NCBI GenBank assembly: GCA_963819815.1
Contig: CAWFXL010000001.1
Location: forward strand, 1,120,001-1,184,000
Origin: an uncultured bacterium
Lineage (GTDB): Bacteria > Babelota > Babeliae > Babelales > Babelaceae
Length of the DNA stretch: 64,000 bases
Direction of reading: 5' to 3'
Shown here: positions 21,001 through 24,000 of the stretch, piece after piece
How positions within the stretch are numbered: position 1 is the first letter of the stretch
Layout: every line of letters begins with the position of its first letter
Made by a program: the position numbers

Positions 21001-24000
21001 GCTCAAAAGAAGTAATCGGTATAGCTGTCTCAGAAAGAAACACAAACTTTGAGTTATTCTGATCTTTTAATGCTTCCCTCAGTAACGCAATTTGTGCTTT
21101 CATCGTATTTGCCCACGTCGTAGGAACTATCTCACCGATGACAGAAGGTGCAAAAAATGATCTAGAATCCACTCCGTTCTTCGAATGCATATATATCGAA
21201 CAATATTTTTCGTGGCCTGAAAAATATTTAATCCAGTTGGGTGTATGATAAACATCTCCCACTGTAAGAAAAAGAAACGCTATTTTTGGTATCATAATCC
21301 AAACCTCAGTTGGGCGACAAAGTGCTATTACTACAAACTCTATTATTAATAGTACTCAAAAGTCAAGGTTTGTTTGGACTTCTAGAATGATGCTATAGAA
21401 ATGTCTTGATAGAACGCTAACTCCCACTATAGAACTATTTCTGAGAACAAGAACTTGCTCGAACCGTAACTTATGATACGAGCAAGCTTACATGCTAAAA
21501 GGATAACCAATATGCGATATTATACTGAGCTTTAGTTCACCGGACGTCCACCGCGAAGCCTATGCTGTTTTCTTTGGGGGAATGGAGTCCCTCTTTCCTT
21601 TTCTAAAGTCTCTATCGCAAGTGCAAATGCTTCCTCCGCAAACCCTGCTACGGTAAGTCCCGGCTCCCAATACACGGCATTTTTCACTCGATCAACAAGT
21701 TCTGTGGATATATGAAGGGTAATACGTTGCTTGGTTGCACGCGGCAACTTCTCTTCAGGAATTCGTGTTCCTTTAATAGCAAGTTGTCCTTGCACATCAA
21801 CTTCTACCGCTTCACCAAACTCAACAGGTACATGCGCGGCCTGCATAGGAACTTCTGGAGCCTTAGGTTGGGGAGGCTCAGCATCCTTCTGTGATACCTT
21901 GGGTTTTTCGTTCATCTTGCTCGACACCTTCGTTGAACTCTTGGGCGTCGAGAGATACTCTTCTAATGGATTAAGACCTATAGTTTTTTTGCTCATACAT
22001 CCTGACCTTACTTTTATTGTGCATTTTCTTGACGGATTACTTCTTTAGCAAGATCTTGATAATCGATAGCTCCATTGCTGGAAGCATCATATTCTGTAAT
22101 CGGCTTTTGAAAAGAAGGTGCCTCTGATAGGCGAATATTTTCGCGAATAGCAGTTTCATAAACTAAACCACTAAAATTCTTACGTAGCTCTTCTACTACT
22201 TCTCTGGCATGACGCGTGCGACTATCCACCCTACAAGGAAGAATGCCAGAAATTTTCAGGACATTATTCAGGCGGTGTCTCACCACATCTACCGTTTGCA
22301 GCAATTGTACAAGACCAGCTACGGCCATAATGCGCGCTTCAACAGGAACAATAACTTCCTCACAAGCAGTAAGCGCATTTATGGTTAGTATCCCAAGCGT
22401 AGGTGAGCAATCTATAAGGATATAATCCCACTTAGCTTGATCTAATTCTTGTATTTTTTGCTTTAATAAAGTTTCAGCACCCACTTCATTGGCTAACGTT
22501 TTCTCCAGGCCATACAGCCATGAAGAAGAAGGGATAACGTCGACACCAAGAGTGGTTGTACTGGTAATAACAGACGTAAGTGGGGTGTTTTCAGTAAAGA
22601 CACTTAAAAGGCCTTTCTCAACCGTCGTTCTACCAAACCACTGTGAAGTGGATGCTTGAGGATCCAAATCTATAACTAAAACTTTTCGTTTCTTTTGCGC
22701 AAGAGCGGCGGCTAAATTTACCGTCGTGGTTGTTTTGCCACTACCACCCTTTTGGTTAATTATCGCAATCTTCCTCATGTATTCCTCAACTCTCTCATTA
22801 GAGACCCAAGTCTAACAAGCACAAAAATTATTAACAACTTTTATGCTATTTTAACCATTATCATTATTTGCTTCCAATAATGTTAATACTCTCCAATGAA
22901 ATAATAAGCATGAAATACATAAATATGATAATTACCGCTAAAGAAACCTTATCATCATATATGTCAATAGATACATTATAAGTATTTTATGCAACGTAAC
23001 CATATCATGCAATTATCGTCTTTGCAAGTTTTTTATGAAATCAAGCCAATACCCAAAATACCTACCTTGTTTACATTTTAATACTTACATTAAATACACT
23101 CAACACTTTCATTTATCGCATTTACATAAATATATTAAATGCAATAAACACATCACTACTAACCATTTCCCCCATTTAATTAAACTGCGCCCATGTCAAC
23201 ATTGACACCATATGATTCATTTATTCCATTTGTCGCTATACACAAAATACATCCAATGATTGCGTTTGTGACATTTTATGAAAAACACACAACACATTTA
23301 ATGCTGCCATTTACTACATTTACACCTATGCAAATTATACGTACATTGCCTTCATTTAGTGTATTTGCTCCAATATACTAAATGAAGGCAATGCATACAT
23401 TGGGGGCGATTTATTATTTTACAGCTTTTAATACAACGCCGCCTTAACACCCATTTATGCCATTTAATAAAAACCATAAATAGCCTCATGGTAATAAAAG
23501 CACTCATTTAAGATGTGTAATAAATGCTTTCTTTTCATGTGTATGCGGTATATGCATAATTTAATGAATTGCGTTCTTTGGATGGATTGTATGTATTTGC
23601 TTATTTTGATGAAAGGAATGAAATGTAATAATTGCTGCTATTTGTGGTATTTTATATATTGTGGGTATTTGTTGTGTTTTAAAGATAAGACATCTACCAA
23701 TTTATAGCTGGGCTCAGTAGAAATGTCTTATCTTAATGAATCATATACCTCAACAAGGTACACAAAAACCATTCCCTGAACAATTGCTTCCAGGACAACA
23801 ATCACCATCACTGTCACATTTACCATCCCCTTGCTCCCAATTACATATACCAAGGGAACCTGGTCGAGACATCATAGTTTCTTCACCATAGCACTCGGCA
23901 TTGAGGGATTGGACTGAAGTAGCGATAGGAAGACTCAAAAGTGCGAGAATAATAGCTATATGTGCTGCTTTCATAGATACTCCTTTTATTATATTTCAAC

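Follow-up and report, generated by a model that had tools for sequence, protein, structure and literature searches.

A ParA/ribbon-helix-helix cassette with a long 9-bp phased array, a candidate centromere near the predicted chromosome origin of a Babelota bacterium

The closest described counterpart of the locus reported here is the partition system of plasmid pCXC100. Upstream of the operon, its ParB binds nine loosely conserved 9-bp repeats that follow one another without spacing, with footprint periods of 9.07 and 8.96 (PMC3074162, excerpted text). In Sulfolobus, the SegAB system consists of a chromosomal ParA and a ribbon-helix-helix (RHH) site-specific protein, the unstructured N-terminus of which stimulates the ATPase; its two short palindromic sites lie upstream of the cassette (excerpts of PMC8682754). 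Borrelia ParZ, a centromere-binding protein that is not a ParB and probably derives from a mobile element, controls the chromosomal ParA near oriC through an N-terminal peptide and, according to the excerpts of PMC9712426, binds its own gene in a host that keeps ParB, parS, and SMC. Chlamydial chromosomes bear plasmid-related parA, mostly with parB kept (PMC7846284, in part). For Babelota, cell division is described as degenerate, and the words 'segregation' and 'partition' do not occur in the available portions of PMC4776705 and PMC6561590. Searches of main texts from journals outside subscription gave no account of the gene pair described below or of the absence of ParB or SMC in Babelota.

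The window, a 64,000-nucleotide stretch of DNA (G000:C1:1,120,001-1,184,000), belongs to a genome of the Babelota, a phylum of protist-infecting bacteria. This genome, G000, is a 1.64-Mb, two-contig assembly of 88% completeness. The features considered here are as follows, with positions counted along the window.

22014-22778, minus strand: parA, 254 aa, a Soj-type Walker ATPase without an N-terminal HTH
21532-21996, minus strand: g1017, 154 aa, a centromere-binding-protein candidate with an N-terminal peptide, a low-confidence linker, and a C-terminal RHH domain
21952-21990, minus strand: conserved N-terminal peptide of g1017 (residues 3-15), a putative ParA-contacting motif by its co-occurrence with parA
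21538-21738, minus strand: RHH DNA-binding domain of g1017 (residues 87-153), with a pCXC100-ParB-like C-terminal loop and the end GRP
22847-23674, no strand: non-coding 9-bp lattice of about 92 units with a pseudo-palindromic core and a 4-bp spacer, a candidate centromere and operator
23344-23393, no strand: 22-bp inverted repeat (95%) within the lattice
22857-22886, minus strand: best sigma-70-like promoter match (10/12), in the lattice end proximal to parA
42764-43161, no strand: predicted oriC, flanked by nusA and the gene of a family-4 uracil-DNA glycosylase, with the skew minimum and degenerate DnaA boxes

Both reading frames were confirmed at the positions given by the initial annotation, with parA first and g1017 following after 17 bp. 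That annotation had also called parA the only one in the genome, and the genome-wide AAA_31 search agreed: one strong match (E 5.9e-53; E 1.7e-52 when the protein alone was searched, with the match beginning at residue 1) was followed by a second-best at E 3.5e-5, which is under the cut-off. The AT-rich, AAATG-dense gap it had described upstream measured 971 bp (22779-23749), with 30% GC and 20 AAATG/CATTT copies. The cassette sits amid core genes on the 1.6-Mb contig, not on a plasmid, and is flanked by rng and gatB; adjacent to it are one glycosyltransferase-like gene and small ORFs of secreted type. An Rfam search of the window returned tRNA only.

This arrangement has the attributes of a type Ib system: a Walker-type ParA that lacks an N-terminal HTH, a small adaptor directly downstream with a flexible N-terminus and a C-terminal RHH domain, and, as a sequence feature, repeated sites of 9-bp period upstream of the operon. 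The type Ib layout proposed at the outset (peptide, linker, C-terminal RHH) is supported, and a specific homologue can now be named. g1017 itself had no Pfam or NCBIfam match at E<=1. A profile of 137 g1017 relatives, searched against PDB sequences, gave three matches at E<=10, all of them RHH proteins. The top match was 3NO7, the ParB of pCXC100 (E=0.0041), in an alignment that spans helix 2 and the C-terminal loop. The g1017 model reached a pLDDT of 85-98 over residues 81-150 and, as a monomer, showed two helices and no strand, because the ribbon needs a dimer. A wide structural search with this model placed 3no7_B first (Z 5.4, rmsd 2.7, 54 aligned), with other RHH proteins tying. Foldseek on the PDB yielded nothing under E 2.6. 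SegB, to which no sequence homology was seen, was absent from the profile matches and appeared in Foldseek only as a row at E 8.1. For PF18064 (CB_ParB_C), g1017 had no match at the cut-off and one of the 137 members reached E 0.048; an Atlas row for the same family at 0.87 was taken as a lead only. From these comparisons, g1017 appears to be distantly related to the ParB of pCXC100, a centromere-binding protein of type Ib, by a homology that is weak in absolute terms.

The g1017 RHH family is not peculiar to Babelota. Its relatives form 681 clusters at the 50% identity level and occur in many phyla, including Chlamydiota, Bipolaricaulota, Dormiibacterota, Nitrospirota, and others (72 genome_contigs loci, several of which duplicated loci of another search and were counted once), in 15 viral loci, and on the plasmids pCher and pSR16, where parA again stands directly upstream. 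Across the 87 genome_contigs and viral loci, the N-terminal peptide was present at 49 of the 53 with parA directly upstream and at none of the 34 without, 14 of which are near-identical phage loci. The confinement of the peptide to parA-linked loci therefore points to a ParA-contacting motif. Whereas this peptide is conserved within the g1017 family, the N-termini of the homologues compared in the excerpts of PMC3074162 are not similar.

The partner ATPase is closest, among solved chains, to ParA/Soj (E 6e-53 to 2e-38), with plasmid ParF and delta at only ~1e-11. In an alignment of 26 sequences, R187 is invariant and R216 nearly so; both residues may serve nucleoid binding, as in Soj.

We then considered the DNA upstream of parA. 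The gap contains 15 CATTT and 5 AAATG, and ATTTA is equally common (21). Thirteen of the 15 CATTT copies share one phase modulo 9 (binomial p 3e-10), and the autocorrelation peaks fall at 45, 9, 99, 36, 90, and 54, all multiples of 9. AAATG, CATTG, and CAATG keep the same register as CATTT, and the core of the unit, which is completed by 4 bp of spacer, is therefore read as pseudo-palindromic, (C/A)A(A/T)T(G/T), a form that would suit a two-fold symmetric dimer. With a motif-free 9-bp index over 32,087 genome windows, the lattice scored 5.5 and the next window 1.79; only a collagen-like gene ranked above the lattice, which is the top non-coding 9-bp signal of G000. A profile made from the loci of seven relatives, with G000 excluded, likewise placed the lattice first in G000 (37.6 vs 21.8). 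A chain model resolved 92 units, 69 to 896 bp upstream of parA, with a score of 159.6, compared with null maxima of 16.7 (100 genome stretches) and 13.7 (80 shuffles). Sigma-70-like promoter matches in the region were at chance level (12 vs 11.0 expected).

Other origins of the array were considered. Derivation from a coding sequence or pseudogene was ruled out by 9-30 stops in every frame in eight genomes, and a role as replication origin was ruled out because the oriC features sit upstream of nusA. The 22-bp inverted repeat at its center has no equivalent in seven relatives and was rejected as a conserved feature.

The lattice is read as a candidate type Ib centromere, and its geometry matches that of the pCXC100 repeats. 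Both systems have parA followed by an adaptor with a flexible N-terminus and a C-terminal RHH domain bearing an extra C-terminal loop, and both have loosely conserved DNA of 9-bp period upstream of the operon, the centromere in pCXC100 and the candidate centromere here. Unlike the pCXC100 system, the Babelota cassette is chromosomal and vertically inherited, has ~92 units instead of 9, uses a different, pseudo-palindromic and AT-rich core, and encodes an adaptor that falls under the PF18064 cut-off. It shares with SegAB a chromosomal ParA, an RHH partner, and sites upstream of the cassette; the system of the available SegAB text, in contrast, is archaeal and has two short palindromes in place of a long lattice.

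The array had been described as not conserved in relatives. This is true of the word, but not of the 9-bp phase. Lattice DNA is mostly unalignable between genomes, except for short pieces and one 111-bp match, and yet stays in register; what is conserved, within the genus, is therefore the phase. Upstream regions beat the chain-score null in 15 of 24 cases, seven of which were training loci or duplicates. Among 17 held-out regions, nine were below the null with the motif trained on f1, the family in which the long array is found (families are labeled f1 to f3 below), and eight were over it: G000 (92 units), G133 (102), L080 (130), and G079 (64, weak), and the shorter G098 (26), G002 (23), G009 (20), and G075 (17). 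Arrays of 68-130 phased units, 0.6-1.2 kb in length, occur in 10 f1-type genomes, and the long array is confined to this family. A motif-free test of the 110 bp before parA gave peaks at lags 9 and 18, not at 10 or 11, both in 13 loci from more distant Babelota (p 0.005 against 61 control genes) and, outside the phylum, in 26 loci free of redundancy (p 0.0003 against 162 controls). Single loci passed the 95th percentile of the controls in only 4 of the 13 and 7 of the 26, respectively, and kin among the loci are not independent in the phase and periodicity tests. A 9-bp array in trans was also sought within 40 kb of oriC; none was detected in G001, G003, or G138, where the pair is distant and 80 kb each was covered, or in G108.

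The initial annotation had found no ParB in Babelota, and this held in a wider sample of 151 genomes of the phylum, 148 of them at least 90% complete. None had a match over cut-off to ParB_N (PF02195), TIGR00180 ParB, or ScpA, which were found in 9, 8, and 9 of 14 controls, respectively; the ParB_N search of G000 returned nothing. MukB was over cut-off in none of 61 phylum genomes, and SMC was found in none of five, against 9 of 14 controls. A parS consensus, with at most one mismatch, matched in 6 of 151 genomes, against 7 of 151 for a control pattern, and not in G000, where the best parS-like match had two mismatches and lay far from oriC. Weak ParB_N matches in G076 and G144 were rejected as ParB, being short stand-alone proteins that do not adjoin parA, and what looked like a parS in L041 turned out to be a translation that arose by chance. 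All of these negatives are non-detections in the genomes searched and do not prove absence. The locus resembles canonical ParABS (Soj/Spo0J/parS) in its Soj-type ParA and, in f1 and f3, in its nearness to oriC. Unlike ParABS, it has neither a ParB CTPase/HTH domain nor a parS palindrome, and sliding-clamp spreading is unavailable to it. It also differs from the Borrelia system, since the Babelota adaptor is an RHH protein with a separate array, and the searches found no ParB, parS, or SMC-ScpAB.

To place the cassette relative to the origin, we used GC skew and DnaA boxes. The cumulative skew minimum noted earlier was recomputed at C1:1,162,852, between nusA and the uracil-DNA glycosylase gene. 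dnaA lies remote from it, at C1:231.7 kb, a distance that rules out an origin at dnaA. In G000, the region has only degenerate DnaA boxes (six in 400 bp at <=2 mismatches, in the top 0.2% of windows). The same place carries at least five boxes at <=1 mismatch in 17 of 20 relatives, the exceptions being G137, G141, and G048; several long-lattice genomes of genus g1 (G000, G141, G048) have 0-2 such boxes. Sampled skew flips sign at nusA in G079, G138, and G003. The region upstream of nusA was taken as the predicted oriC, ~19 kb from the lattice.

The distance from parA to nusA is 20 kb in G000, in line with the ~20 kb to the skew origin first reported, and 22 kb in G141, 14 in G137, 22 in G048, 15 in G079, 20 in G133, 13 in G135, and 27 in G053. 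It is 195 kb in G138, 493 kb in G001, and 533 kb in G003, the pair of which is near the terminus by skew. Thus, the pair, and with it the candidate centromere, lies within 27 kb of nusA in G000 and seven more of 11 same-contig genomes, all eight from f1 and f3, and not in G138, G001, or G003. These 11 are the pair-bearing genomes, of 19, for which the distance is known; five others have the genes on different contigs, and counting on one contig is biased toward near cases. Moreover, the origin-proximal cases are kin and may represent one or two events. Neighboring genes suggest that the f2 copies all share the distant locus. In a second ParA-RHH clade (clade 2), four of five genomes have the cassette within 16 kb of nusA (G108 9 kb, G095 9, G029 13, G009 16), and the fifth, G130, has it at 140 kb.

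Homologues of g1017 were found in 19 of the 151 genomes, from five families; a profile search brings in three more, of which two are short relatives without parA and one is a clade-2 partner. The reported position of parA directly upstream now extends to all 18 relatives fetched. One of these, G137, has a frameshifted parA, possibly through a sequencing error. ParA-like genes occur in 34 genomes, and 117 of 151 have none at E<=1e-15, including 13 of the 20 genomes in the same family as G000; the phylum therefore divides without ParA, and the pair is, as had been stated, not essential across it. At the other ParA loci (10 of 13 in one set and 8 in another), parA is followed by a small protein that is not ParB, except in G107, where the ParA match is a different ATPase. 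These loci form at least three further clades, and hhalign relates the clade-2 partner remotely to g1017 (90%, E 1.7e-6).

In a quick ParA tree (54 rows, SH-aLRT only, four intended rows without sequence and G137 omitted), 22 Babelota rows fell in one clade (99), with subclades for f1 (96), f2 (95), and two f3 genomes (96); row L160 was an unreliable long branch. A separate ParA copy of G124 grouped with Parachlamydiaceae and Cardinium plasmid ParA (100). This topology fits a cassette that was acquired once, long ago, then passed down vertically, lost many times, and gained anew on at least one later occasion. Judged by the tree, the pair in the window is not a recent insertion, and no integrase, replication, or transfer genes were found near it.

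We lean, by a modest degree, toward a type Ib cassette that has been domesticated and whose expanded centromere positions the origins; binding and function are what we infer here. An ancestor of several Babelota families would have gained a cassette of the pCXC100 kind on one occasion and handed it down vertically. In f1, where it lies 14-22 kb from oriC, a short promoter-proximal 9-bp array would have grown ~tenfold, to 0.6-1.2 kb. By analogy with pCXC100, g1017 dimers would bind cooperatively all along the lattice, with a beta-ribbon inserted into the core of one 9-bp unit after another. The flexible linker would present many N-terminal peptides to ATP-bound ParA on the nucleoid and stimulate hydrolysis. 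The co-occurrence of peptide and parA, together with the precedents of ParG, omega, SegB, and ParZ, suggests that this stimulation may move or space the origin region. From its position, the same lattice would cover the promoter and autoregulate the operon. We hypothesize that a long array supplies many adaptors, as CTP-driven ParB spreading does elsewhere. In favor of this reading, the searches detected no ParB, parS, ScpA, SMC, or MukB that could take on the task; weighing most heavily against it, 117 of 151 genomes lack ParA and one family holds the pair near the terminus.

A broader proposal, which we put forward tentatively and rate as somewhat short of probable, is that ParB, parS, SMC-ScpAB, and MukB were lost and that some lineages independently captured ParA-RHH cassettes near an oriC uncoupled from dnaA. 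The f1 cassette would then be the main origin-positioning machine, with the phased lattice replacing ParB spreading, and the centromere of the chromosome would be an RHH array. Of the idea of a ParB substitute, the type Ib layout, the absence of ParB, and the upstream candidate centromere are supported. As a phylum-wide substitute it has support only in part, since 117 of 151 genomes lack ParA, the pair is far from the origin in G138, G001, and G003, and the long array belongs to f1 only.

The alternative that survives best, though we consider it unlikely, is a domesticated and dispensable autoregulated operon, with the lattice a slippage-expanded operator, a role of ParA that is minor at most, and a proximity to the origin that a single insertion produced by accident. 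The patchy presence of the pair (19/151), its location at the terminus in f2, promoter arrays that are short in most members of the family, and the best promoter match lying within the lattice would all be expected on this account. However, 68-130 phased units in 10 f1-type genomes, diverged in sequence beyond alignment, far exceed the need of an operator, ParA and the peptide stay conserved, and the second clade is also near nusA.

Soj controls DnaA, and the nearest relative of the Babelota ParA is chromosomal Soj. The complex could act at the origin without being a segregation motor, either by tuning DnaA or replication timing or through a coated lattice by which, in multi-genome replication bodies, the origin would be compacted or anchored. 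The degenerate DnaA boxes of the long-lattice genomes G000, G141, and G048 and the lack of a detected SMC to organize the chromosome are consistent with this, but G133 combines a long lattice with six perfect boxes, and the same cassette is carried by plasmids pCher and pSR16, on which it would be expected to serve partition. We regard such a non-motor role as quite improbable.

It is very doubtful that an orphan ParA positions non-DNA cargo while a different protein binds the lattice or the lattice DNA has an intrinsic structure. Periodicity can occur in AT-rich DNA, and the g1017-lattice link is one of inference, but the period here, at 9, differs from the helical 10-11, matches the 9-bp spacing measured for the homologue, and is specific to the region upstream of this cassette across phyla. 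Finally, the pair might be what is left of a plasmid or prophage that integrated recently, brought its own centromere, and plays no part in the chromosome, as the plasmid and viral members of the family, the G124 copy, and the other ParA cassettes of the phylum among toxin-antitoxin and IS genes might suggest. This reading is highly unlikely and largely refuted by vertical inheritance, since the pair lies between the core genes gatB and rng with no mobile genes nearby, the ParA tree follows host families, and the position is common to f1 and f3.

Taken by itself, the pair belongs to a cassette family that is widespread. What is surprising is that the phased array has expanded tenfold, that two clades lie close to the origin, and that the phylum is one without detected ParB or condensin. 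If the preferred reading of a domesticated type Ib cassette is true, a bacterial chromosome can use an RHH array in place of the ParB clamp, like archaeal SegAB, and array length can stand in for spreading. The analysis also maps the predicted Babelota origin to the region upstream of nusA and gives the geometry of the DNA sites for an RHH family that lacks annotation and comprises at least 681 clusters. Furthermore, it sharpens the question of how most Babelota, with their atypical division and with ParA, ParB, and condensin not found, sort their chromosomes.

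We searched for other chromosome segregation proteins across the phylum. SMC scored over the cut-off in none of five Babelota genomes, ScpA in none of 151 and MukB in none of 61. As ParB is likewise missing, most of the searched Babelota genomes have no recognised segregation machinery.

A second ParA-RHH clade was detected in families f6, f3 and f17 (loci L043-L053 and L060). It carries a basic, ParB-like N-terminal peptide, and its partner is a remote homologue of g1017, the RHH protein encoded downstream of parA. A weak 9/18-bp signal was observed upstream of this clade, and nusA often lies within 16 kb of the pair. 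Two more clades combine ParA with a small partner (L279-L281 and L286; L069-L071 and L285); toxin-antitoxin or IS genes adjoin several of their members, and the small partner is truncated in genome G040. Short RHH relatives without parA were also found 3' of an HTH gene in genomes G085 and G002 (L283, L284).

Members of the family in Dormiibacterota have clear GC-rich 9-bp direct repeats upstream of parA (L124, L128, L130, L135 and L137), and the parA-RHH cassette occurs there in several copies per genome. Within the source genome, G000, a genome scan found a single segment whose 9-bp signal exceeded that of the lattice, the 9-bp-period array upstream of parA: a collagen-like repeat gene at C1:1,114,451, outside the 64-kb window.

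Elsewhere in the window, gatB is flanked by a cluster of small cysteine-rich ORFs with signal peptides (23750-23974 and 25965-28352), one of which matched Pfam Toxin_12 below the cut-off (E 0.007). Judged from sequence, 30433-34313 appears to hold tandem AAA-ATPase-like genes with putative N-terminal signal or membrane segments, one apparently broken into pieces (32152-32526).

Between nfo and infB lie three non-coding repeats of 210-250 bp:

37738-37981, first copy
38291-38537, second copy
39046-39254, third copy

Their mutual identity is 83-91%, with no Rfam match and no further copies in the rest of the genome; folding of the first copy gave a z of -2.0.

Finally, DnaA boxes and skew were used to predict the replication origin:

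42764-43161, predicted oriC (L169-L178 and L219-L228 in relatives)

Degenerate DnaA boxes were found at this site in G000, G141 and G048. DnaA-box clusters were present upstream of nusA in 17 of 20 relatives, and the skew switched there in three sampled genomes. By these signs, the Babelota oriC seems to sit immediately 5' of nusA and well away from dnaA.
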